Origin: Candidatus Omnitrophota bacterium
GTDB lineage: Bacteria; Omnitrophota; Gorgyraeia; Gygaellales; Profunditerraquicolaceae
Length of the DNA: 64,000 nucleotides
Direction: 5' to 3'
Assembly (NCBI GenBank): GCA_025453395.1
Contig: JALOQK010000002.1
Coordinates: 241,102 to 305,101, forward strand
Positions 9,396 to 27,097 of the stretch are shown here, one piece after another. The translations under genes and the position numbers were made by a program. The notes under the pieces were generated by a model. It worked only from the letters and a program-made list of their open reading frames with translations. It did not search any database and had not been told where the DNA came from. Every line of letters begins with the position of its first letter. Positions within the stretch are counted from its first letter, which is position 1.

Positions 9396-10180
9396 TTTCT
9401 TAAATACGCCTCAAGGTATGAATCGCAATAGATATGCTTGTTCAGGATTAATTCAGTGGTAATGCTTGTGTCCATGAGCTGTTTGTCTTTTGGGTCTAAT
9501 ATTGCCGCGTCTAATCCGTAATTGATGGCCATGGTAAGGAAGGTGCGGTTTATCAGGCTTCTAAAATGTGCCCCCTGGGATACGTTGCTTAATCCGATTA
9601 TAGTTTTAGGCGAAGGCTCTGTAAGCATCTTAAACTCTTTTATAGATTCAAGTATTTCCTTCATCTGCTGTTGGGCGACATTTACCGGAAGCAGAATTGG
9701 GTCAATAAAAAGATCTTCAATGGGGAATCCCTGTTCTTGGCATGTGGATACGATAATAGCCGCTAATTCAAGGCGCTGGTCTTTATTTTGCGGTATGCCT
9801 TTTTGGCTTATGGTCAACCCGATTAATTTGGCGTTATGCTTTTTAGCCAAAGGGATAAACTTGTTAAGTTTTTCTGGATCAGAGGTAGTGGAATTAATAA
9901 TAGCCGGATTTTTCATCCGGGATAACCCGGCTTCAATTACTTCAAATCTGCTTGAATCAACAGCCAGCGGCTTATCAGTGACCTGTTGTATGGCGTCTAT
10001 AAGCCACTGGATATCTTCTTTGGGGTTTTTGGCGGTTGGGCCGCAATTTACGTCAAGCGCATCAGCGCCAGCTTGTATCTGCTCCAGGGCAATCCGTTGT
10101 ATCAGATCAATTTTTCTCTCGCGGATAGCAGCGGCTACATTTGAGTACATCCCGTTTATTAATTCTCCCACTATGAACAT
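9392..10180 (-). CDS. acsE: Methyltetrahydrofolate:corrinoid/iron-sulfur protein methyltransferase (AcsE-type pterin-binding MeTr)
   Basis: About 260-aa pterin-binding TIM barrel. The operon context (acsC and acsD) supports the call. Confidence 0.75.
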   Translation of the reverse strand: MFIVGELINGMYSNVAAAIRERKIDLIQRIALEQIQAGADALDVNCGPTAKNPKEDIQWLIDAIQQVTDKPLAVDSSRFEVIEAGLSRMKNPAIINSTTSDPEKLNKFIPLAKKHNAKLIGLTISQKGIPQNKDQRLELAAIIVSTCQEQGFPIEDLFIDPILLPVNVAQQQMKEILESIKEFKMLTEPSPKTIIGLSNVSQGAHFRSLINRTFLTMAINYGLDAAILDPKDKQLMDTSITTELILNKHIYCDSYLEAYLRK

Positions 10181-11085
10181 TAGTTTCCTCCATACATTGC
10201 GTCAATGTAGCTTTTGACTTTTGCGATAGATTCCGGATGGCGCATTACAAGGATATTCGCCCCTGCCTGAAGCAATGAGGTGGCGGTAATTACTTCCCAG
10301 GCAACGCCTTGATCTTTTATTTTGGCCTCTTTAGTTTTCCATGTCTCTTGCCCTACAAAACAAATAAACGGGCTTGCCACTGTTTTGTCTCCGGATAGGC
10401 CTGCAAGCCTGGCGCGCTCCATAATTGAATAGGCATACTCTAAGCCGTATCCTAAAGATCCGGTAGTAGGATTGATAACTATTCTGTCCAAACTTAACCC
10501 CATATCCGAAATAAGAATATTGAGCTGTTTGGCTATATTTATGTCAATGGGAGATTCCGCGATAATATTGTGGCCATCGGCTAATGCCGCAGCGGTTAAA
10601 GTTTTGTAGTTATCTTGAGTAACGCAACCCAAAAGGCAGCGCTTGGATTTTGTTTTTTCCGAACACAGGGGCAGCATTTGGTTATCCACAGCGTCGTCTC
10701 CGCAGCCCAGGATAATAAGCGGCAGATTAGTTTCTTTTATTATATCACAAGCAAGCTTCGCCTCTTGCTCTATTTTTATATTTCCCTGGTCCGGATGCGC
10801 GGCATAAAGCCTAAGGCAAAGAAGCTGTGCCTTATATTCTTTGGCGCATTTTTTCGCCCAGGCAATTGGATCTTTCAGGCAGTTTCCGTATATGCTTAAT
10901 AGCTCTTCAGGCCACTCTCTGGGAAACACATCCCAGATTTCATATGCCACAACCGGTTTATGCGGCAGAGAAGCCTCCTTAAATAAGAATGGCAGGGTTT
11001 TTTCTCCTCCCACGCTAATGGTATCCCCTATTCTTACTATCGCAACTTCGCCGGGCCATTTTTCAATCATTGCCTCTTGGGTCAT
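10180..11085 (-). CDS. acsD: Corrinoid iron-sulfur protein small subunit (AcsD / CdhD, CODH/ACS delta)
   Basis: About 300-aa CdhD-family TIM-barrel protein. It lies between acsE and cooC. Confidence 0.75.
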   Translation of the reverse strand: MTQEAMIEKWPGEVAIVRIGDTISVGGEKTLPFLFKEASLPHKPVVAYEIWDVFPREWPEELLSIYGNCLKDPIAWAKKCAKEYKAQLLCLRLYAAHPDQGNIKIEQEAKLACDIIKETNLPLIILGCGDDAVDNQMLPLCSEKTKSKRCLLGCVTQDNYKTLTAAALADGHNIIAESPIDINIAKQLNILISDMGLSLDRIVINPTTGSLGYGLEYAYSIMERARLAGLSGDKTVASPFICFVGQETWKTKEAKIKDQGVAWEVITATSLLQAGANILVMRHPESIAKVKSYIDAMYGGN

Positions 11086-11102
11086 AAAGATCTCCTGTTT
11101 AG

Positions 11103-11840
11103 TTAAATTATTTTGTCAGTTATTTGTTTTAAGGCTGTCAATGCTTGCGAATTGTTTTCAAGCGAGAAAACGCAACTAGCGTTAATGCCTATTTTTATTA
11201 ATTCGGCATCTTGCGGGATGTACCCTGCGATTTGCATGCCGGTAGTATTTTTAAGTATTATATTTTCATCAGCGCAGTTTAGAAGCAGCAATATCTTTTT
11301 TGTTTTTACTTTTAATTCTTTTACCAGTTCATTTACTCTCGCGGCAGCTTTCATGCTGACCGCATTTGGGTTTGCCAGAATAATCAAACTATCAGCATGG
11401 CGCGTGGTGCGCCGGGAAAAATGTTCCAGGCCTGCTTCGTTATCCATAATGACATAGTCATATTCAGCAACTAATTTGCCCATCATATTGCGCAAGAGAT
11501 TGTTCACGTAGCAGTAGCATCCCGGGCCTTCGGGCCTGCCCATAGTTAAAAGATCAAAACCCTCTTCTTCAGAAATAGCCGTGTGGATTTGGTATTCAAT
11601 GAAATTCTCTTTGCTGGTTCCGGCGGGGATCTTTTCCGGATGAGAAGATATCTCTTCTAATAGCGAGCCAATAGTTTTCCCCTCTTCAATCCCAAGCGCC
11701 TGTCCCAAATTGCTATTAGGATCAGCATCTATCGCTAAGATAGACCCGGATTTTCTTTCTTTTAATATCCTGACCAAAAGCGCAGCGATGGTGGTTTTTC
11801 CTGTGCCGCCTTTTCCTGATAACGCGATTATGTAACCCAT
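11103..11840 (-). CDS. cooC: CooC/AcsF-type Ni-insertion ATPase (MinD/ParA family)
   Basis: Deviant Walker A GKGGTGKTT and the CooC-characteristic CxC metal motif (EGPGCYCYVN). Confidence 0.8.
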   Translation of the reverse strand: MGYIIALSGKGGTGKTTIAALLVRILKERKSGSILAIDADPNSNLGQALGIEEGKTIGSLLEEISSHPEKIPAGTSKENFIEYQIHTAISEEEGFDLLTMGRPEGPGCYCYVNNLLRNMMGKLVAEYDYVIMDNEAGLEHFSRRTTRHADSLIILANPNAVSMKAAARVNELVKELKVKTKKILLLLNCADENIILKNTTGMQIAGYIPQDAELIKIGINASCVFSLENNSQALTALKQITDKII

Positions 11841-12131
11841 AAAATTAAAAATTTAAAATGAAAAATGTAAAATCAAAAGATAAAACCAAGAATATAATAT
11901 AGTGTTAAGAAATAAAAGCTTAGAATTCAAACAAGTGTGCGTTAAATAAATATTAAAAATCTATGATAAATCGTCCTGATTCTTTATTTTCTTGTTACTT
12001 CGCTATTTTTTATGATCTTTTTAATTTTTTGTATCTAGATTTTTAAATTTTAAATCTTTTCTTATCACTATCTTTAGCCGTTTCTTATACTTCTTTGTAT
12101 CTGTAGCTTTTTAATTTTGAATTGTTATTTT
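11841..12131. repeat. AT-rich intergenic repeat element, copy A. It has imperfect terminal inverted repeats and an internal direct repeat.
   Basis: The left arm aaaaatttaaaatgaaaaatgtaaaatcaaaag is approximately the reverse complement of the right arm gaattgttatttttcattttgaatttctcattttgaattttt. The internal direct repeat ttgtatctagatttttaaatttt (12027..12051) recurs as ttgtatctgtagctttttaatttt (12093..12118). Confidence 0.5.
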
Positions 12132-13979
12132 TCATTTTGAATTTCTCATTTTGAATTTTTCTAAGTCCGTATGCGGAAAGAATAATGCCGCCATATATTC
12201 TTCCATATATCCGGGTTGGTTAGACAGATCTATATATGTTGTTTTATTGGCTATTTCTAGAGATTTTGCTTTTGCCGGGATTGAAAAAATGATCTCCCTG
12301 GCTCCTCTAATGGAGCTGTTTCCGACAAACAGAAATTTGCCTTTTTCTAAATCTGGAAGCAGTCCTATTGCTATTGAGTCTTGAATGTCCAAATAAGTGC
12401 CAAAGCCTCCGGCAATAAAGAATTTGTGCACATCTTTAAAGGAAAATCCCATGTGTTTTATTAATGTTTCTGCCGCGGAATAAATCGCAGCTTTAGCGCG
12501 CTTAATATTCTCAATATCTGATTCGGTAATAATTATTTCTTCAGCTGCGTTGGATTGGCCCTGATGGCAGACAATAAAAGCTCTTCCCAGATCAGTATCT
12601 TTTATTTTTGAGGGGTTTTTAATCTGGATATTGCCTGCTTTGTCAATAATCCCTTTTTCCAGCATTTGGGCGATAAGCGAGATGTATCCAGACCCGCAAA
12701 TGCCTAAAGCCGGCACATCCCCGCCTATTATCTGAAAGCTTGTATCAAGGCTTCTGTTATCTATGGATACTTTTTGGATCGCCCCCCGAGAAGCGCGCAT
12801 GCCGCAGGATACTCCTGAGCCTTCAAAAGCCGGTCCGGCGCTGGCGGCACAAGATATCAGGAATTCTTTATTGCCAAGGACTATTTCTCCGTTTGTGCCT
12901 ATATCAATCAAGAGCGAAAGGTGTTCCTGTTGGTCTAATGAGCAAGCCAGTATTCCGCTTGTGATATCCCCTCCCACATAACTTGCTACTGCTGGTATGG
13001 GCATAAGTACGCCGCGCGGATTTATAATGATACCGGCTTCAACCGCATGTATAGACGGGAAAGAATTAGCTACGGGGGTATACGGGTCACGGCGGATAAA
13101 AGAAGGGTCGGTTTTTAAGAGGATATGCGTCATAGTGGTATTGCCGGCGCAGATTATAAAGTATACATTGTTTAAGTCTACCTGGTGCTGTTGGATCAAT
13201 TCCCGGATAATATCATTTATTTGCCCGGTAACAATACTGTGCAGTTTCTCTAACCCTTCAGAGTTCTTGGCAAAGATAATGCGGGTAATCACGTCACTGC
13301 CGAAACTGGCTTGCTTATTGTAACAGGCAGAAGCCCCCAATGACTTTCGGTTGTTTAGATCTACAAGCTCGCCGGTTATGGTAGTGGTTCCGATATCAAA
13401 ACAGAAACCGTAATTTTTGCTTGTTGTGTCACCCGGCTCTATGTGAATAACTTCAAATATTGTTTCCCTGTAAGCAAGGGTAATTGTAATTTGCCAGTTT
13501 GAATCTCTCAGAATTTCTGCGATTTGCCTTAAAGTAGTTATGCCTATAGTTATGCTTCCAAGGTTATATTTGTCTATTTCCCGCGTTATCCTTTCCCAAT
13601 CGCTTAAAGGGTCATTTGGCTTGGGCGCAGGCAATTTCAAAAATATTTTCTTAACCAGCGGTAATTGTTCAAAGCCGGTATTGCCCAAGGATATTTTAGA
13701 CAGTTCTATTTCCTGGGCATCGGTTTTTTCAAAGATCAATCTTGATTGTTCCGGTATTTCTACCTGCATATCTTCTTTTACTATGGTTAAGCAGGCAAGT
13801 TTAGATACGGAAATTCCTTTATCCTTGATGATCACTTTGCATTGCCCGCAGGTGCCTTCGCCTGCGCAGGCGGATTTAATATAGTTTGCGCAGGATATTG
13901 CCGCGGAAAGCACAGTTGTCCCCTTGGGGACTTCTACTGTTTTTCCTTCAGGGTAAAAAGTTACTTTACATTTATCCAT
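12132..13979 (-). CDS. Reductive activator of corrinoid iron-sulfur protein (RACo): [2Fe-2S] ferredoxin plus ASKHA ATPase
   Basis: N-terminal plant-type ferredoxin Cys pattern (CAGEGTCGQC...C) followed by an actin/HSP70-fold ATPase region. 615 aa, typical of RACo. Confidence 0.8.
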   Translation of the reverse strand: MDKCKVTFYPEGKTVEVPKGTTVLSAAISCANYIKSACAGEGTCGQCKVIIKDKGISVSKLACLTIVKEDMQVEIPEQSRLIFEKTDAQEIELSKISLGNTGFEQLPLVKKIFLKLPAPKPNDPLSDWERITREIDKYNLGSITIGITTLRQIAEILRDSNWQITITLAYRETIFEVIHIEPGDTTSKNYGFCFDIGTTTITGELVDLNNRKSLGASACYNKQASFGSDVITRIIFAKNSEGLEKLHSIVTGQINDIIRELIQQHQVDLNNVYFIICAGNTTMTHILLKTDPSFIRRDPYTPVANSFPSIHAVEAGIIINPRGVLMPIPAVASYVGGDITSGILACSLDQQEHLSLLIDIGTNGEIVLGNKEFLISCAASAGPAFEGSGVSCGMRASRGAIQKVSIDNRSLDTSFQIIGGDVPALGICGSGYISLIAQMLEKGIIDKAGNIQIKNPSKIKDTDLGRAFIVCHQGQSNAAEEIIITESDIENIKRAKAAIYSAAETLIKHMGFSFKDVHKFFIAGGFGTYLDIQDSIAIGLLPDLEKGKFLFVGNSSIRGAREIIFSIPAKAKSLEIANKTTYIDLSNQPGYMEEYMAALFFPHTDLEKFKMRNSK

Positions 13980-13982
13980 GTA

Positions 13983-15326
13983 TTATCCAGCAGAGTAGTT
14001 CTTTAAGAAAGCTGGCAGACCCGATGCTTCTTTTGGGCCCACGGTTATTTTCCAACCGGATTTTTCTTCCAGCTCTCCGCTTAAAACTGCGACATAACCG
14101 GGTATGATCAGGTTTTTATGCGATACAGCTTTATCGGCATTAAGCTTAATAAGGGCGTTAGCTATTTTCTCCGGGGTAAATTTCTCCGCCGCCCAGGCAG
14201 TTAAGACCGACATGCCTTCCGTATCCATGCTTATTATGTGCGAGGGGATTTTGCTGGCTTCTACCTCTCCCAGGACCGTGTAATAACTAAGCGAGAAATT
14301 TGTGGTGATCATGATCGGAGATTTGACAGTGGCATTTCCTATGGTGTAGATTTTTGGTTCAATCTGAAGAGGCTTTTGCGGATCGGTATAAATATTTTGC
14401 CTTAAGGTTAAAAGCGACAGGGCCTCCCACGCAAGCGCATGTTTCAATAAAACAATACCGGAATATTTACAGATGTAGGTTGCCGCTTCCATGATTTCAT
14501 CAAGGGGATCGGCCTTGTTGATAGTTACTATTGCGGGATATCCTAATAAGCGGTTTGATTTTTTAAGCGCCTGGCGGCGGATTTGGGTTAAGTCCCAGAG
14601 TTTTTCCCGGGTATTCTTATCTCCAGAATCAATAATCAGATCGTTAAGCCCTGCCTTGGCCAGGCTTTCAGTTTTAGCTGCCGCCTCTTCTATTGTTCCG
14701 GCCTTAACTACCATAGCAAGCTTGTTTTCTTTGGCTAAGGCAGCTGCTTCTTGGCTAATATTTTCATCCGGATAAATAAGCGGCTTTTGATCTTTGCTTA
14801 TTTTTATAGCCTGTTCCAAAGAAGCTATGTCGCTTACCATTAAAACTATGGCCAATTTTGTATTTTTTAAAGCCGTCTGCACTAATTTGATGAAATTTTG
14901 CAGGCAGCCGGTTTGCTTTAGGGCGATTAAATTAACTTCTAATTTTTGCCCTACGCGCTCAAATACAAAACTATTTATTTTATTGATCTGATGCAATATC
15001 TCTGTTTCTTTTAAAGTGTCTTCTAATATTATGCCGATTCCGCAAGGATTGTGGAACTTTTCTTCATGCCGGAACAAGACGCTTTCATTGCCAATATCAA
15101 GTTTATTTTCGCCTGTCCCGATGGATACTAATTTTATTGGAGGCTGGGAAGATTCTTCAAGTATTTTCTTTGATTCATTGGATAAAAACGGGCACTTATC
15201 GATGCTTATCCCCTTTTTTGCTAATTGCATGGCAAAGGCAAGGCAGGTTGCGATGCCGCATTGCCGGCAATTTGTTTTAGGCAATAACTTATAGATGTCT
15301 AATCCCGAAAGCGCCATAATTAACAA
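13983..15326 (-). CDS. acsC: Corrinoid iron-sulfur protein large subunit (AcsC / CdhE, CODH/ACS gamma)
   Basis: N-terminal [4Fe-4S] motif CRQCGIATC...C, a TIM barrel, and a C-terminal B12-binding Rossmann domain. 447 aa. Confidence 0.8.
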   Translation of the reverse strand: MLIMALSGLDIYKLLPKTNCRQCGIATCLAFAMQLAKKGISIDKCPFLSNESKKILEESSQPPIKLVSIGTGENKLDIGNESVLFRHEEKFHNPCGIGIILEDTLKETEILHQINKINSFVFERVGQKLEVNLIALKQTGCLQNFIKLVQTALKNTKLAIVLMVSDIASLEQAIKISKDQKPLIYPDENISQEAAALAKENKLAMVVKAGTIEEAAAKTESLAKAGLNDLIIDSGDKNTREKLWDLTQIRRQALKKSNRLLGYPAIVTINKADPLDEIMEAATYICKYSGIVLLKHALAWEALSLLTLRQNIYTDPQKPLQIEPKIYTIGNATVKSPIMITTNFSLSYYTVLGEVEASKIPSHIISMDTEGMSVLTAWAAEKFTPEKIANALIKLNADKAVSHKNLIIPGYVAVLSGELEEKSGWKITVGPKEASGLPAFLKNYSAG

Positions 15327-16192: not shown

Positions 16193-16525
16193 TTAATATC
16201 CTCGCAAAATCACTAAGATAATCAATACGATCAGGATAGTGCTTAATATGTAAAAATCGTTGAAATACAAAAAGTCGCTTATTCTTTCTTTTAAGCAGTA
16301 TCCGCTGTAAGAAGGTTGTTTATTAAGCAGGTTTTTGTTTTTTTGGCGGTATTCTTCTACCTGATGGCGCTTAAACCTAAGGTATACCCCTGCTATTTTA
16401 TAGGCAGGGATTTCGCCTTTTTCCGCCAGCTCAATAACTTCTTTTTCTGTTACTCCCAGCGCAATAGAAACATCTCTTATGGTAATAAGTTTTTCGTCAG
16501 CCATTTTTATATAGATATTGTACAT
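16193..16525 (-). CDS. Excisionase-family HTH DNA-binding protein with a C-terminal TM helix
   Basis: The HTH ITIRDVSIALGVTEKEVIELAEKGEIPAYKIAGVYLRF matches the excisionase/MerR-type helix-turn-helix. The C-terminus ILSTILIVLIILVIL is hydrophobic. Confidence 0.55.
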   Translation of the reverse strand: MYNIYIKMADEKLITIRDVSIALGVTEKEVIELAEKGEIPAYKIAGVYLRFKRHQVEEYRQKNKNLLNKQPSYSGYCLKERISDFLYFNDFYILSTILIVLIILVILRGY

Positions 16526-16615
16526 TAGCCGATTGAAAAACCCGGCTAATCATCAACTTTAACAAGCCCAGACCAAGATTCGGGGTAGTCGCGGTTGATT
16601 TTGTTAAAAGAAAGG

Positions 16616-17119
16616 TTACTTTCCGATTTTTCCTGATGCTATCCAGGAGTCAATAGCTTTCCTGTCGAATCTCCAGCCTTCTCCTTCTTTGATTGCGGGT
16701 ACTTTTCCGGAATTGGCCCATTCTAATATGGAATTTAAATCAACTTCAAGGTACCGCGAAAGCTCATCTGTATTCAGAAAATCGTGCAGCATCATGCATT
16801 TGCCTTCTAGTATCGCGCCTTCGGCCACATTTAATTTTGCCGGGTAGATATCGCCTTCTACAAGCGCTGATGGCAGAAGGGTTAATCTTTCCCTGGCGGT
16901 AATATGCCCCTTGACTTTCCCCCCAACAATAACGTTATCCCCGATTATATCCGCGCAGACAACCGCAGTTTGGCCTATGGTTAAATTTCCTTTTATTTCC
17001 AGGTTGCCTTCAAACCTGCCATTGATGCGTAAATTTACCGGTTCCTTAAAGCTTAATGACCCTTGCATTGCTGCGTCCACATCAAGGATTTTTTCTTCTT
17101 GTTTCTTTTTAAAGGCCAT
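16616..17119 (-). CDS. Bactofilin-domain protein fused to a C-terminal excisionase-type HTH
   Basis: Residues ~25-115 show a bactofilin beta-helix repeat pattern (NLEIKGNLTIGQTAVVCADIIGDNVIVGGKVKGHITA...VEGDIYPAKLNVAEGAILEG). The C-terminal ELSRYLEVDLNSILEWANSGKVPAIKEGEGWRFDRKAIDSWI is paralogous to the HTH of the upstream gene. Confidence 0.65.
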   Translation of the reverse strand: MAFKKKQEEKILDVDAAMQGSLSFKEPVNLRINGRFEGNLEIKGNLTIGQTAVVCADIIGDNVIVGGKVKGHITARERLTLLPSALVEGDIYPAKLNVAEGAILEGKCMMLHDFLNTDELSRYLEVDLNSILEWANSGKVPAIKEGEGWRFDRKAIDSWIASGKIGK

Positions 17120-17130
17120 AACCTTACCTC

Positions 17131-17589
17131 CTATTTTTTATGTTCATGCGGCTGTTGCAGTTTTTCAAAAACAAGCGGTTCCGCGCGCCTTAAAACAAGA
17201 AGGACTATTAATGCCAAACAGGTTGCGAAAATAGCCCCGGTGTAAAAACCGCATCCTATTGATAATCCGATGCCAGAGACCACCCAAAGGCTGGCTGCGG
17301 TAGTTAAGCCTTTTATTTCAGTGCGGTCGCGCATAATCGTTCCTGCGCCTAAAAAGCCTATGCCAGTAATAACCCCGGCAGCTAAACGCACTGGATCAAG
17401 GGGTACTATGTCCTTATATATATCAAAAATATATATAGATGTCAACATCATAAGGCAGGAGCCTAAGCAAACCATGATATGGGTGCGAAGGCCAGCGTTC
17501 CTGCGATGGAATTGCCGTTCAAACCCGATCAGTCCACTTAAGACTACTGAAGCAGAAAGTCTGAAAAAAACCTGGAAATCTGTGACCAT
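17131..17589 (-). CDS. mgtC: MgtC/SapB family membrane protein
   Basis: The motif VLSGLIGFERQ...GLRTHIMVCLGS is characteristic of MgtC. Confidence 0.7.
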   Translation of the reverse strand: MVTDFQVFFRLSASVVLSGLIGFERQFHRRNAGLRTHIMVCLGSCLMMLTSIYIFDIYKDIVPLDPVRLAAGVITGIGFLGAGTIMRDRTEIKGLTTAASLWVVSGIGLSIGCGFYTGAIFATCLALIVLLVLRRAEPLVFEKLQQPHEHKK

Positions 17590-23872: not shown

Positions 23873-26800
23873 ATGAAAAAGCCAAGCTTTCAACTTTCTA
23901 AAACCGGCGAATTTGTCATCACAAACTATAATCACGCCAAGCCTTTTGCCAATTTCTTTCCCGCGATAGCGGGTTGTTTTGGCATTCCCATTTGGGTTTT
24001 CTACGTTAATCGCGGGCAGTGCATCGCCAGCCTAGGCACTAAAGATAAGGACCACGCCATAATGGAGTTCTCGCCTGCCAATAAAGCCTGGCAGCATACC
24101 TCTTTGCAGGGGTTTCGCACTTTTTTGAAGATAAGCCGCGGTAAAAGCAATCTTTTTTATGAGCCGTTCCACAATGGATTCTCTAATTTGCCATATACAA
24201 TAGAGAACAAAATGAAGGTATCCTCCTATGGTTTAAAAATAGAAGAAACAAACTATACTTTAGGCGTTCAAACCGAAGTAGAATATTTTACCCTGCCCAA
24301 CGACAGCTTTGGCGCTTTAGTGCGCGCTGTTACCATACGCAATATCTCAAAAAGAAATCAGCATATTCAGATGTTAGACGGTGCTTCCCAGATAATACCG
24401 TTTGGAATGAATAACTGGCTGATGAAAGAAATGAGCCGCACTATTGAAGCCTGGATGGTGGTTGATAATTTAAAGCAAAAGGCCGCATTCTTGCGGCTTC
24501 TTGTTGACCCCTCTGACCGCCCGGAAGTAACCCACATAAAAGAAGGTAATTTTTATTTTGGCGCAACTGATGAAAATTCCCAGATGCTTCTTTTAGACCC
24601 GATAGTTGACCCGGATGTTATTTTCGCAGAGGTAACCGACTTCTCTTGCCCGGCATCTTTTTTGCGCGGCAAAGATTTCCTCCCGGATCTTTCAAGACAG
24701 GCTGTAAAAAATAAGATCCCCTGCGGTTTTATCCACAGCGCATTTAATCTTAAAACCAATGAAGATAAGATATTTTATTCCATGCTGGGGTATGCTTTTA
24801 ACGTGGATGCCTTAAACAAGGCATTGAAGCGTATGCTCAGTCCGGGATATTTAAGCCGTAAGCGCGATGAAAATCAAGCTATTATTAGCGGCATTACTCA
24901 GATGATTGAAACAAAAAGTTCTTCCTTGGCTTTTGACTTTTATGCCAAGCAGACTTTTCTGGATAATATTATGCGCGGTGGGCTGCCTCTTACCTTAGAA
25001 ACCGGGGATAAAAAGCATATTTTTTACCTGTATTCGAGAAAACACGGAGATCTGGAGCGCGATTATAATCGTTTCCAAATTCAGCCGACCTATTTCTCCC
25101 AGGGCAATGGTAACTACCGCGATATCAACCAAAACCGACGTCTTGACTGCTGGTTTAACCCGCTGGTAAAGGAAAACAATATCGTTTCTTTCTTGAATCT
25201 GATTCAAACTGACGGGTTTAACCCTTTAGTGGTTAAGGGCGTAAGTTTTCTTATCCAAGATCAGGATCTGCTTCGATCACGATTAAAATCTTTTGTGCGG
25301 GGAGAAGATGAAAAAACCCTGATTGATTTCTTTGCCAAGCCGTTTACCCCTGGAGACCTGGCTCAGCTTATACTGGAGAAGGATATCAAGCTTTTTTCTT
25401 CTTTAGAAAATTTTATCGGCCAGATACTATCTTTGTCGGTTGAGTATCAAGAGGCTGAACATGGCGAAGGTTTCTGGATTGACCACTGGGCGTATAATCT
25501 GGACCTTCTGGAAAATTATTTCTCCATGTATCCCGAAGACAAATTAAATTTATGTTTTGAAAAGAAAATCTTTACTTTTTTTGATAATAGCGAGGTGGTT
25601 AAGCCGCGCGCTGAGAAATACCTGCTTTATCACGGACAGCCAAGGCAATTACACTGCGTGGGAGTTGATTCCCATAAAAAAGAATTGATCAAAAAGCGCC
25701 ATAGCCTTTCCCACGCAATGCACTCTGGATATGGAACAGCAGATATTTATACCACCAGCCTCTTTGCTAAGCTTTTGTGCTTGTTCGTGAATAAAATGTC
25801 CTCTCTTGACCCGTTTGGGGCAGGCATTGAAATGGAAGCAAATAAACCCGGCTGGTATGATGCCTTAAACGGGCTTCCGGCTTTATTTGGCTCATCATCC
25901 TGCGAGACCTTTGAATTAAAGCGCCTGATCCTCTTTTTAAAGGATATCGTGGATCTGGGGCCTAACATGAGAATACAGATTTCGGAAGAAGTAATTGATT
26001 TTATCTTTAGCCTTGACCCTATTATAAAAGAAAGCCTGCAGAGCGATTCCAATGAAAAAGACTATGTCTATTGGGATAAGGCAACCAGCCTTAAAGAGGC
26101 TTACCGTAAAAAGACCATTCTTGGATTTAGCGGAAATGATATTCAGATCTTAGCAAAAGATGTATTGCCTGTTTTGGATAATGCCTTAAAGAAAATTGAC
26201 TCGGCTATTAACAAGGCCTATGATCCTAAAGCAAAGATGTACTACGCGTATTTTATGCACGAGGTAGTTGAATTTTCCCAGTTGGAGCATGGGTTTATCA
26301 AGCCGCTTAAGTTCAGGCAAATAAGATTGCCCTTTTTCTTGGAATCTCAAGTGCACGCTTTGCGATTAGCTTCTGATGAAAAGCAGGCTCGCCAATTGCA
26401 TCAGGCAGTTATGAAAAGCGCTCTTTACGATAATAAACTTAAAATGTATAAGGTAAACGCCCCGTTATCTGCTATGCCTGAAGAAATCGGCAGATGCCGC
26501 GTGTTTACTCCCGGCTGGCTTGAAAATGAATCTATATGGCTGCATATGGAGTATAAGTATTTGCTTGAACTCTTAAAGCAGGGGCTTTATGATGAATTTT
26601 ACGCTGATTTTAAGAATGTGCTGATCCCCTTTCTTGACCCTTTTGTCTATGGAAGAAGTATATTAGAAAATTCTTCTTTTATCGTGGGAAGCGCCTATTT
26701 TGACAAAAAATTACATGGAGCTGGTTTTGTGGCGCGGCTATCCGGCTCAACGGCAGAATTTTTGCAGATCTGGCTTTTAATCAATACCGGCAAACAGCCA

Positions 26801-27097
26801 TTCTTTATGGATAACAAAGGCCAGCTTGCTTTACGTTTTCAGCCCGCGCTTGAGGCTTGGATGTTTGATAAAAAAACCGGCAGTTATTCTTTTAAATTTT
26901 TGAATAAAACTATGGTTACTTATCACAACCCAAAAAGAAAGAATACCTTTGGGGCAAATATGGCGCAGGTTAAGAAAATCACCTTCCTTGATAAAAATGC
27001 CAAACTTATAGAAATAGAATCATCTTTTATCTGTCCGCCTTACGCCGAACAAATCAGGTCCTGCCAAATTGGGAAAATAGACATCTATTTAGGATAA
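23873..27097 (+). CDS. Large cytoplasmic GH94-like glycoside phosphorylase superfamily protein (1074 aa)
   Basis: This is the only plus-strand gene. The N-terminus GEFVITNYNHAKPFANFF parallels cellobiose-phosphorylase EYVITxPxTPxPWxNYL. GNGNYRDINQN parallels GMGFRDSNQD, and GWYDALNG parallels the catalytic-region WNDCLN. No signal peptide. Confidence 0.5.
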   Translation: MKKPSFQLSKTGEFVITNYNHAKPFANFFPAIAGCFGIPIWVFYVNRGQCIASLGTKDKDHAIMEFSPANKAWQHTSLQGFRTFLKISRGKSNLFYEPFHNGFSNLPYTIENKMKVSSYGLKIEETNYTLGVQTEVEYFTLPNDSFGALVRAVTIRNISKRNQHIQMLDGASQIIPFGMNNWLMKEMSRTIEAWMVVDNLKQKAAFLRLLVDPSDRPEVTHIKEGNFYFGATDENSQMLLLDPIVDPDVIFAEVTDFSCPASFLRGKDFLPDLSRQAVKNKIPCGFIHSAFNLKTNEDKIFYSMLGYAFNVDALNKALKRMLSPGYLSRKRDENQAIISGITQMIETKSSSLAFDFYAKQTFLDNIMRGGLPLTLETGDKKHIFYLYSRKHGDLERDYNRFQIQPTYFSQGNGNYRDINQNRRLDCWFNPLVKENNIVSFLNLIQTDGFNPLVVKGVSFLIQDQDLLRSRLKSFVRGEDEKTLIDFFAKPFTPGDLAQLILEKDIKLFSSLENFIGQILSLSVEYQEAEHGEGFWIDHWAYNLDLLENYFSMYPEDKLNLCFEKKIFTFFDNSEVVKPRAEKYLLYHGQPRQLHCVGVDSHKKELIKKRHSLSHAMHSGYGTADIYTTSLFAKLLCLFVNKMSSLDPFGAGIEMEANKPGWYDALNGLPALFGSSSCETFELKRLILFLKDIVDLGPNMRIQISEEVIDFIFSLDPIIKESLQSDSNEKDYVYWDKATSLKEAYRKKTILGFSGNDIQILAKDVLPVLDNALKKIDSAINKAYDPKAKMYYAYFMHEVVEFSQLEHGFIKPLKFRQIRLPFFLESQVHALRLASDEKQARQLHQAVMKSALYDNKLKMYKVNAPLSAMPEEIGRCRVFTPGWLENESIWLHMEYKYLLELLKQGLYDEFYADFKNVLIPFLDPFVYGRSILENSSFIVGSAYFDKKLHGAGFVARLSGSTAEFLQIWLLINTGKQPFFMDNKGQLALRFQPALEAWMFDKKTGSYSFKFLNKTMVTYHNPKRKNTFGANMAQVKKITFLDKNAKLIEIESSFICPPYAEQIRSCQIGKIDIYLG

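Follow-up and report, generated by a model that had tools for sequence, protein, structure and literature searches.

Two adjacent genes, which we call gene B and gene A in the order in which they are read, lie on the minus strand at positions 16193–17119 of a 64,000-nucleotide (nt) stretch of contig JALOQK010000002.1 (positions 241,102–305,101; assembly GCA_025453395.1) from a Candidatus Omnitrophota bacterium; this whole stretch is hereafter the window. Gene B encodes a fusion of a bactofilin domain with a winged helix-turn-helix (HTH) domain, and gene A encodes a small HTH protein with a transmembrane tail. Both open reading frames (ORFs) had been located by an initial annotation, and we find them at the stated coordinates, on the minus strand. 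Their features are as follows:

16616–17119, minus strand: gene B, a bactofilin–winged HTH fusion of 167 amino acids (aa), with its stop codon at 16616–16618 (ORF and Pfam).
17090–17119, minus strand: N-terminal tail of B (residues 1–10, MAFKKKQEEK), which resembles a bactofilin membrane-targeting sequence.
16790–17089, minus strand: bactofilin beta-helix of B (residues 11–110), the predicted polymerisation domain (Pfam, PDB profile and Foldseek).
16619–16789, minus strand: C-terminal winged HTH of B (residues 111–167; HTH_17, model, Foldseek and PDB profile).
16193–16504, minus strand: gene A, a predicted tail-anchored winged HTH membrane protein, 103 aa long if translated from the second ATG and 110 aa if translated from the alternative start at 16525.
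16331–16504, minus strand: winged HTH of A, on the cytoplasmic side by inferred topology (HTH_17, Foldseek and hhalign versus the HTH of B).
16196–16276, minus strand: juxtamembrane DFxYFNDFY motif and C-terminal transmembrane helix of A (alignment, hydropathy and model).

Hidden Markov models bear out the earlier proposal that B joins an N-terminal bactofilin domain to a C-terminal HTH. The Pfam Bactofilin profile (PF04519, DUF583) matches residues 11–108 with E = 7e-24 (84.4 bits against a cutoff of 27.9, covering positions 2–97 of the 98 in the profile), and HTH_17 (PF12728) matches residues 114–163 with E = 6.9e-11 (42.7 bits, cutoff 27); the TIGR01764 ‘excise’ model is passed narrowly (32.0 bits, cutoff 28.8). 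An AlphaFold2 model of B, made from 23 family members, has a mean predicted local distance difference test score (pLDDT) of 84. The first eight residues are disordered in this model, residues 11–110 form a continuous beta-helix made entirely of beta-strands (pLDDT 83–95), and residues 114–161 follow the strand-helix-helix-strand-strand-helix order of a winged HTH. By Foldseek, the beta-helix resembles BacA (2n3d; target-normalised TM-score 0.83, root-mean-square deviation (rmsd) 2.2 Å) and also the Thermus bactofilin TtBac (6rib/6ria), and PDB profile searches recover the same two proteins (2n3d, 1.2e-14; 6ria, 7e-14). The HTH is structurally close to BldC (rmsd 1.5 Å), RdfS (1.3–1.4 Å), the mycobacteriophage Pukovnik Xis and RacA, and its PDB profile matches are RacA (E = 0.006) and BldC (0.009–0.013).

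Two further features of B can be compared with those of known bactofilins. Leu104 aligns with the polymerisation-interface residue Phe105 of TtBac (Phe130 in BacA), the residue whose mutation yielded a non-polymerising crystal form, and this position is Leu or Phe throughout the family. In the tail, M1, A2, F3, K4 and K5 are conserved in 70–100% of 80 species. The global consensus of bactofilin membrane-targeting sequences is MFSKKKK; its hydrophobic residues embed in the bilayer, while its lysines contact the lipid head groups (PMC12448750). The MAFKKK of B has its Phe one position off this consensus, and the tails of divergent members are merely basic and hydrophobic. Its sequence, its predicted fold and its interface residue all identify B as a bactofilin.

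The junction between the two domains bears on whether B is a cytoskeletal polymer at all. In the clade of the window there is essentially no linker between the end of the beta-helix (at about residue 110) and the first HTH strand (residue 114), as might be the case if the HTH capped the C-terminal interface and the beta-helix served only to dimerise or oligomerise a soluble HTH regulator; winged HTHs of the MerR type mostly depend on a dimerisation module, for which the beta-helix is the only candidate in B. But divergent members carry 10–25 extra residues at this junction, the hydrophobic interface residue and the targeting-like tail are conserved, and the beta-helix is constrained as strongly as in true bactofilins. 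We therefore regard an oligomerisation-only role as quite improbable and take B as a putative polymer-forming bactofilin in what follows.

The initial annotation gave lengths of 167 aa for B and 110 aa for A. The former stands, whereas A is probably 103 aa long and begins at the second ATG (16504), because nearly all of its 316 homologs are 101–105 aa long and start with MA(D/E)EKL. The excisionase-type HTH and the C-terminal transmembrane helix that had been ascribed to A are both recovered: HTH_17 matches residues 14–63 with E = 1.2e-7 (32.4 bits, cutoff 27), TIGR01764 is again passed narrowly (31.1 bits, cutoff 28.8), and the mean Kyte–Doolittle hydropathy over 19 residues reaches 2.6 at residues 84–102 of 103. 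Among 87 homologs of A, the hydropathy of the C-terminal stretch has a median of 2.45 and a minimum of 1.69, with 0–5 residues after it. Since the hydrophobic stretch is so close to the C-terminus, A is predicted to be anchored in the membrane by its C-terminal tail, with the HTH facing the cytoplasm.

An alignment of 22 A sequences (numbered from the first ATG) consists of a conserved HTH (residues 8–58), a variable and basic linker and a hydrophobic C-terminus that ends in RGY. Residues D84, F85, Y87, N89, D90, F91 and Y92 of the juxtamembrane motif are invariant in these 22 sequences, and the motif is conserved in 80 species. The AlphaFold2 model (mean pLDDT 76) has a winged HTH, a disordered linker and helices at residues 78–88 and 90–108. 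Its best Foldseek match is the RacA–DNA complex (5i44), followed by BldC and Pukovnik Xis (rmsd 1.1 Å) and, lower down, by the centromere-binding domain of pSK1 Par. The same architecture recurs in divergent clades: the A proteins of loci L083, L088 and L091 keep the motif as well, and that of L089 keeps the transmembrane tail alone.

The two HTHs had been described as paralogous, which is only partly upheld. Alignment of the two family alignments with hhalign gives a probability of 97.8% (E = 6.5e-13, 63 columns, 21% identity) and supports distant homology, whereas BLASTP finds no alignment between A and B. With the profile of the B HTH, the A family reaches a median of 32.7 bits and free-standing tandem HTH_17 proteins reach 49.5 and 61.4 bits; likewise, the profile of the A HTH scores B at 11 bits and the same outside proteins at 19–25 bits. 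Each profile thus prefers foreign HTH_17 proteins to the partner family, and we rejected a sister-paralog relationship. By these alignments and scores, the A and B HTHs are homologous members of one domain family (HTH_17) and not sister duplicates. Neither protein belongs to the BldC family (NF033787 in NCBIfam; 12.9 bits for A and 14.7 for B against a cutoff of 77) or to the MADS1 antiphage HTH family (NF047737 in NCBIfam; 32.1 and 40.2 bits against a cutoff of 80). The neighbourhoods examined, without a search of the PADLOC library, contain no genes for restriction-modification, methylases or other defence functions.

Outside the bactofilins, the B HTH is most closely related to free-standing proteins that consist of 2, 3 or 7 tandem HTH_17 repeats (P0303, 231 aa; P0344, 417 aa; and P0365, 135 aa). 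Single proteins with 3–7 such repeats show that arrays of the HTH_17 domain are used elsewhere.

We then inspected the distribution of the pair. A protein search returned 1272 relatives of B, the best 120 of which are all 161–173 aa long, are 76–86% identical to B and contain both domains; those of the 120 that carry a taxonomic name are all Omnitrophota. The closest database copy is identical and comes from a Candidatus Omnitrophica metagenome-assembled genome. B has 11,433 matches in a protein library clustered at 50% identity, and among the best 150 of these only about 25 clusters span both domains (30–57% identity, 168–192 aa), the rest being plain bactofilins or fragments. A second search with divergent seeds recovered fusion proteins whose sole taxonomic names are Omnitrophica, after which the score falls from 163 to 95 bits and fragments and plain bactofilins start. 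Two candidates for short HTH-only proteins (P0406 and P0432) were rejected as truncated fragments of fusion genes. Scanning one genome per GTDB species found relatives in at least 522 genomes, and the best 80 of these loci are all Omnitrophota by synteny. Several of them (L005, L007, L010, L017, L059, L069 and others) have the Omnitrophota-type syntenic locus at 75–81% identity under titles such as ‘uncultured Planctomycetales’, ‘Candidatus Margulisiibacteriota’ and ‘Candidatus Pacebacteria’; these titles of GTDB representatives are probably naming or binning errors. By these searches, the fusion is restricted to chromosomes of the Omnitrophota.

The absence of a classical annotation, noted earlier for both genes, needs qualification. 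Generic database names exist (i.e. ‘polymer-forming cytoskeletal protein’, ‘helix-turn-helix domain-containing protein’ and, in JGI, ‘excisionase family DNA binding protein’), but in full-text searches we found no published description of a bactofilin–HTH fusion or of Omnitrophota bactofilins. The fusion architecture is visible in automatic annotation and has so far gone uninterpreted.

Linkage was analysed in the 80 best GTDB loci and two metagenomic loci (82 in total). Gene A is directly downstream of B in 81 of them, and in the exception the sequence stops just past B. In 87 extracted pairs, the two genes are typically about 11 nt apart (median; extremes -4 and 174 nt), and some overlap. 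In the window, the pair belongs to a run of co-oriented genes for a CtpA-like protease, a YibQ-like deacetylase, TsaD, an MgtC-family protein, B, A, LarB and an acetyl-CoA synthase corrinoid protein; the chromosomal order GatB-CtpA-YibQ-TsaD-MgtC-B-A-LarB is conserved. Related genomes with other flanking genes keep the pair as well: it occurs as BatD-TPR-MgtC-B-A-PDZ (B 50% identical), MgtC-B-A (43%), B-A-LarB (37%) and SPOR-TPR/PDZ-B-A (35%), and also as CtpA-TsaD-MgtC-B-A and CtpA-TsaD-B-A-GroES. Because they are adjacent in 81 loci and stay together down to 35–37% identity of B despite changed flanks, A and B clearly belong together as a gene pair.

SPOR-domain and TPR/PDZ proteins flank the pair in two divergent loci (L089:3289-4946 and L083:5984-6985), i.e. 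an envelope- or division-type setting that echoes the CtpA and YibQ-like genes beside the pair in the clade of the window. The most divergent clade (∼30% identity, from an Omnitrophica WOR_2 genome) is the sole one without an adjacent A; there, B lies after a ParA/MinD-type ATPase gene and two unknown genes and before a gene for a multi-pass membrane protein. The ATPase (L092:866-2263, also L093:869-2266) is 465 aa long and has an unusual architecture, in which an AAA_31 domain (E = 1.5e-51) is followed by a C-terminal glycogen- or carbohydrate-binding module (AMPK1_CBM/CBM48); this is a hint that a carbohydrate granule or similar cargo may be positioned in the manner of ParA systems. Neither of the two proteins encoded between the ATPase and B (273 and 217 aa) has a Pfam match.

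This chromosomal setting also bears on the possible mobility of the pair. Both proteins score just over the TIGR01764 ‘excise’ cutoff and one database name calls them excisionases, as might be expected if the HTH genes belonged to an integrated mobile element, as its excisionases or recombination directionality factors, and lay beside the bactofilin domain by chance. But the locus is syntenic with housekeeping genes in more than 80 species, no integrase was found in any neighbourhood examined, relatives of the fusion are absent from the plasmid, phage and IMG/VR viral contig collections, and B is fixed in length and very highly conserved; we consider this explanation effectively refuted. The same chromosomal synteny and the same absence from the plasmid, phage and IMG/VR sets rule against the plasmid-anchoring part of the function proposed in the initial annotation.

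Two further features lie next to the pair:

17131–17589, minus strand: gene for an MgtC/SapB-family membrane protein of 152 aa, consisting of the transmembrane domain only, 11 nt upstream of B.
16505–16615, minus strand: spacer between the two genes, which measures 111 nt up to the probable start of A and 90 nt up to its first ATG.

The MgtC-like protein matches PF02308 with E = 1.7e-41 (141.8 bits, cutoff 31.4) and falls under the NCBIfam equivalog cutoffs. Its gene immediately precedes B in most of the 82 close loci and is also found upstream in the divergent loci L083, L091 and L094, but not in L089, L095 and L092. Because it is kept in divergent loci whose other neighbours differ, the MgtC-like protein may be a third component of the module. 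To our knowledge, MgtC has no known link to bactofilins. The spacer of the window is long for this pair, as it is in a minority of other species (97–174 nt), and holds an imperfect hairpin (TTAGCCG...CGGCTAA); it has no Rfam match, folds no better than shuffled sequence (z = -0.88) and contains promoter-like sites at no more than chance frequency.

We then compared the conservation of the neighbouring genes. Measured against the window proteins, the median identity over the 80 species is 76.8% for B, 66.4% for the MgtC-like protein, 62.4% for LarB, 61.2% for CtpA, 60.8% for the AcsC-like protein, 57.0% for TsaD, 52.9% for A and 47.5% for the YibQ-like protein, and B is the most conserved gene of its neighbourhood in all 56 fully comparable loci. 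The mean column identity within B is 0.87 in the tail, 0.85 in the beta-helix and 0.84 in the HTH, i.e. about equal constraint throughout. B is under strong purifying selection. Because it exceeds TsaD in conservation and its tail, beta-helix and HTH are equally constrained, this pattern points to a core cellular function with several constrained surfaces.

Our leading interpretation, to which we assign a probability of roughly 0.4, is that the pair forms a membrane-bound bactofilin scaffold that tethers DNA. In this mechanism, A and B would make up a two-protein, Omnitrophota-specific module at the cytoplasmic face of the inner membrane, often with an MgtC-like protein encoded alongside. B would (i) polymerise through its bactofilin beta-helix; (ii) be held on the inner membrane by many weak, cooperative contacts of its MAFKKK tails; and (iii) display one winged HTH per subunit, such that the polymer would be a multivalent array of weak HTH units. 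A would insert its C-terminal helix into the membrane, with a flexible basic linker carrying its own, homologous winged HTH. The two proteins would jointly hold chromosomal DNA or a nucleoprotein complex against the envelope, working like RacA-DivIVA, Noc or BacNOP-PadC-ParB but with the DNA-binding-type domain within the polymer itself. We infer the polymerisation of B, its binding to the membrane, the presence of A and B in one complex and, above all, DNA as their ligand.

Two observations argue for DNA as the ligand at the level of structure and gene context: the nearest solved structures of both HTHs are those of DNA-bound architectural, anchoring or partition proteins (i.e. RacA, BldC, Xis, RdfS and pSK1 Par), and in one divergent clade the fusion gene is three genes downstream of a ParA/MinD-type ATPase gene. 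The residues that would contact DNA give a different picture. In BldC, Arg30 and Lys26 contact bases in the major groove, Thr27, Thr29, Lys33 and Trp31 contact phosphates, and the wing residues His46, Arg47 and Arg48 contact the minor groove; the R30A mutation abolishes DNA binding, and RacA uses the equivalent Arg (PMC5859096). With the alignment anchored by V-D...V/I..W-A..G-K, these positions correspond as follows:

BldC Lys26: Asn129 in B; Lys28 in A (kept).
BldC Thr27: Ser130 in B; Glu29 in A.
BldC Thr29: Leu132 in B; Ile31 in A.
BldC Arg30: Glu133 in B; Asp/Glu32 in A.
BldC Trp31: Trp134 in B (kept); Leu33 in A.
BldC Lys33: Asn136 in B; Glu35 in A.
BldC His46: Gly148 in B; Tyr48 in A.
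BldC Arg47: Trp149 in B; Leu49 in A.
BldC Arg48: Arg150 in B (kept); Arg50 in A (kept).

Several findings weigh against tethering of DNA by the pair. The position of the base-reading Arg30 is occupied in the 23 B members by Glu (14), Gln (3), Lys (2), Asp (2) or other residues (2), and by Asp/Glu32 in all 22 A sequences. Glu29, Asp/Glu32 and Glu35 of A are invariant or nearly so, and the would-be DNA face is thus acidic. The net charge of the B HTH is -2 to -11 in 21 of the 23 members (median -4). Most A members have an HTH net charge of +1 to +2, compared with +6 for BldC and +3 for RacA (for these two reference sequences, the HTH cores are confirmed by alignment). The neighbouring genes are mostly of envelope or housekeeping type (CtpA, YibQ-like, SPOR, PDZ/TPR and TsaD) and not of DNA-segregation type. 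Finally, an HTH placed with almost no linker after the last rung of the beta-helix could disturb the C-terminal polymerisation interface.

On the other side, B retains Trp134, Arg150 and Ser130 (the last similar to Thr27), and A retains Lys28 together with an invariant basic wing (K43, R50, K52 and R53). The loss of the Arg is not decisive, because its position also varies in other HTH_17 proteins, where it is Lys, Ser, Asn, Ala or Thr; outside the A and B families, we saw no acidic residue there in other HTH_17 proteins. A Glu can read cytosine in some HTH proteins. Judged by these residues, neither A nor B has the basic recognition helix of HTH_17, and canonical DNA reading of the BldC/RacA type is unlikely for both. 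Some other form of DNA binding is possible, more so through the polar helix of B and the basic wing and linker of A.

A protein ligand is a real alternative. The winged HTHs may have been repurposed as protein–protein adaptors, with A as a membrane receptor or regulator of the B polymer, perhaps together with the MgtC-like protein, in an envelope or morphogenesis scaffold that does not bind DNA. We rate this main rival as doubtful but serious. The charge reversals at the canonical DNA-contact positions of both HTHs, the acidity of the B HTH as a whole and the invariant or nearly invariant acidic residues of helix 2 in A (E27, E29, D/E32 and E35) all agree with it, as do the uniformly high conservation of the B HTH surface, which equals that of the beta-helix, the tight B–A spacing typical for subunits of one complex, and the envelope-type neighbours (CtpA, YibQ-like, SPOR, PDZ/TPR and MgtC). 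Protein-binding MerR-like winged HTHs are known, and one of them, CbpM (with the CbpA J-domain), is among the fold matches. Furthermore, the HTH protein BacR binds bactofilins directly and in competition with DNA binding (PMC13649987), and a membrane anchor in trans can support bactofilin assembly (PMC12448750). By contrast, the great majority of HTH_17, excisionase and MerR-type winged HTHs bind DNA, the best structural matches are all DNA complexes, the variability of the Arg30 equivalent elsewhere in HTH_17 softens the argument from charge, and the membrane-targeting-like tail of B makes a separate anchor look redundant. Because DNA binding is weakened at the residue level, the nucleoid anchoring proposed in the initial annotation is only plausible, and a protein-binding role is its serious rival.

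Comparison with characterised systems places the DNA-tethering scaffold among several partial precedents. Like the canonical bactofilins (i.e. BacA and BacB of Caulobacter, TtBac of Thermus and CcmA of Helicobacter and Proteus), B has the beta-helix and the interface residue, and its tail resembles their membrane-targeting sequence. Canonical bactofilins have short disordered tails and act on clients in trans (e.g. PbpC and LmdC), whereas B carries a folded winged HTH at its C-terminus and, in the 81 of 82 close loci described above, is followed by a dedicated gene for a tail-anchored partner.

One of the nearest functional analogues is BacR (YhbD, DUF4004) of Bacillus subtilis, which is encoded beside the bactofilin genes bacE and bacF. 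BacR physically binds the BacE/BacF polymer and is recruited through it to membrane foci, and vancomycin releases it to the nucleoid (PMC13649987). BacR is soluble, about 210 aa long and restricted to Bacillota, and its C-terminal domain is conserved, whereas A has 103 aa and a transmembrane tail, and the other HTH is fused into B; the gene orders also differ, with the HTH gene first in the Bacillus BacR operon and A after B in Omnitrophota. This precedent raises the question of a similar switch, in which one or both HTHs would be transcription regulators, perhaps of their own operon, that are sequestered on the membrane or polymer until a signal, possibly envelope stress, arrives. The BacR case in B. 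subtilis (PMC13649987), the coding of a small HTH protein (A) beside a bactofilin gene and the envelope genes nearby would fit such a switch. But A is permanently anchored by its transmembrane helix with no evident cleavage or release mechanism, the B HTH is covalently fused to a polymer-forming domain, and neither A nor B matches DUF4004 (PF13171; BacR) at E ≤ 1. A median identity of 77% over 80 species, above that of TsaD, would be unusual for a local regulator, and promoter-like sites in the region occur at chance frequency, no more often than in shuffled sequence. We consider a BacR-like switch improbable.

For a DNA tether, the RacA-DivIVA system of sporulating Bacillus subtilis is another near analogue, as it places a MerR-like winged HTH, carried on an oligomerising module, at a membrane-bound scaffold. 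Bactofilins aside, no PDB sequence matches B better than RacA (with the E-value of 0.006 given above), which is also the top fold match for A, although the sequence similarity is weak and confined to the winged HTH. A RacA-type anchor has a coiled coil and binds DivIVA; neither property is present in A or B, whose models lack a coiled coil, and the base-reading Arg of RacA is Glu/Asp in both. In Myxococcus xanthus, the BacNOP-PadC-ParAB system provides a bactofilin scaffold that positions the chromosome segregation machinery (PMC5703909), and the ParA/MinD-type ATPase gene near the fusion in one divergent Omnitrophota clade recalls it. There, the link to DNA is indirect (through the ParB-like PadC and ParA/ParB), whereas B has a DNA-binding-type domain within the bactofilin itself and no adjacent ParB-like gene. 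BldC, Xis and RdfS share the winged HTH fold (rmsd 1.1–1.6 Å to the A and B HTHs) and multimerise head-to-tail on DNA as cooperative weak units (PMC5859096, PMC11963761). These are free units of 50–70 aa that assemble on DNA, whereas the array of A and B would be pre-formed by the polymer or by the membrane; and the key Arg30 and most of the wing Arg/His contacts of BldC are missing from A and B.

A still broader proposal is that a nucleotide-independent, DNA-binding bactofilin lattice and its tail-anchored HTH partner anchor or organise the chromosome in the ultra-small cells of Omnitrophota, as an essential, lineage-specific alternative or supplement to anchoring of the ParABS or DivIVA type. 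We regard this as speculative and, on present evidence, rather unlikely.

The window as a whole has an extreme bias in gene orientation: the minus strand carries 55 of its 59 ORFs that are 150 aa or longer. Of the four on the plus strand, three overlap longer ORFs of the opposite strand, and the ORF at 23873–27097 is the only likely plus-strand gene. A Wood-Ljungdahl/acetyl-CoA synthase cluster lies just downstream of LarB at about 10180–15326 on the minus strand and, by synteny with locus L001, contains genes for an AcsC-like corrinoid Fe-S protein, a RACo-type activator, a CooC/CbiA ATPase and a CdhD-like protein. A small FmdE-domain gene between LarB and AcsC in L001 is absent from the window, where the gap is 190 nt; judged by gap length, only some of the 80 loci have this gene.

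Omnitrophota are widespread and mostly uncultured bacteria with very small cells, and their cell biology is almost unknown. Across 80 species, B surpasses the universal tRNA-modification enzyme TsaD in conservation, which suggests a core role of B in this phylum. Known bactofilins are protein-recruiting membrane scaffolds whose links to DNA have so far been indirect (i.e. through PadC-ParB and BacR), and a bactofilin with a DNA-binding-type domain on every subunit would be the first such polymer for direct, multivalent engagement of a ligand. If this ligand is DNA, the pair would represent a new mode of chromosome–membrane attachment; if it is a protein, the pair would be a clear case of an excisionase-type HTH repurposed as an adaptor.

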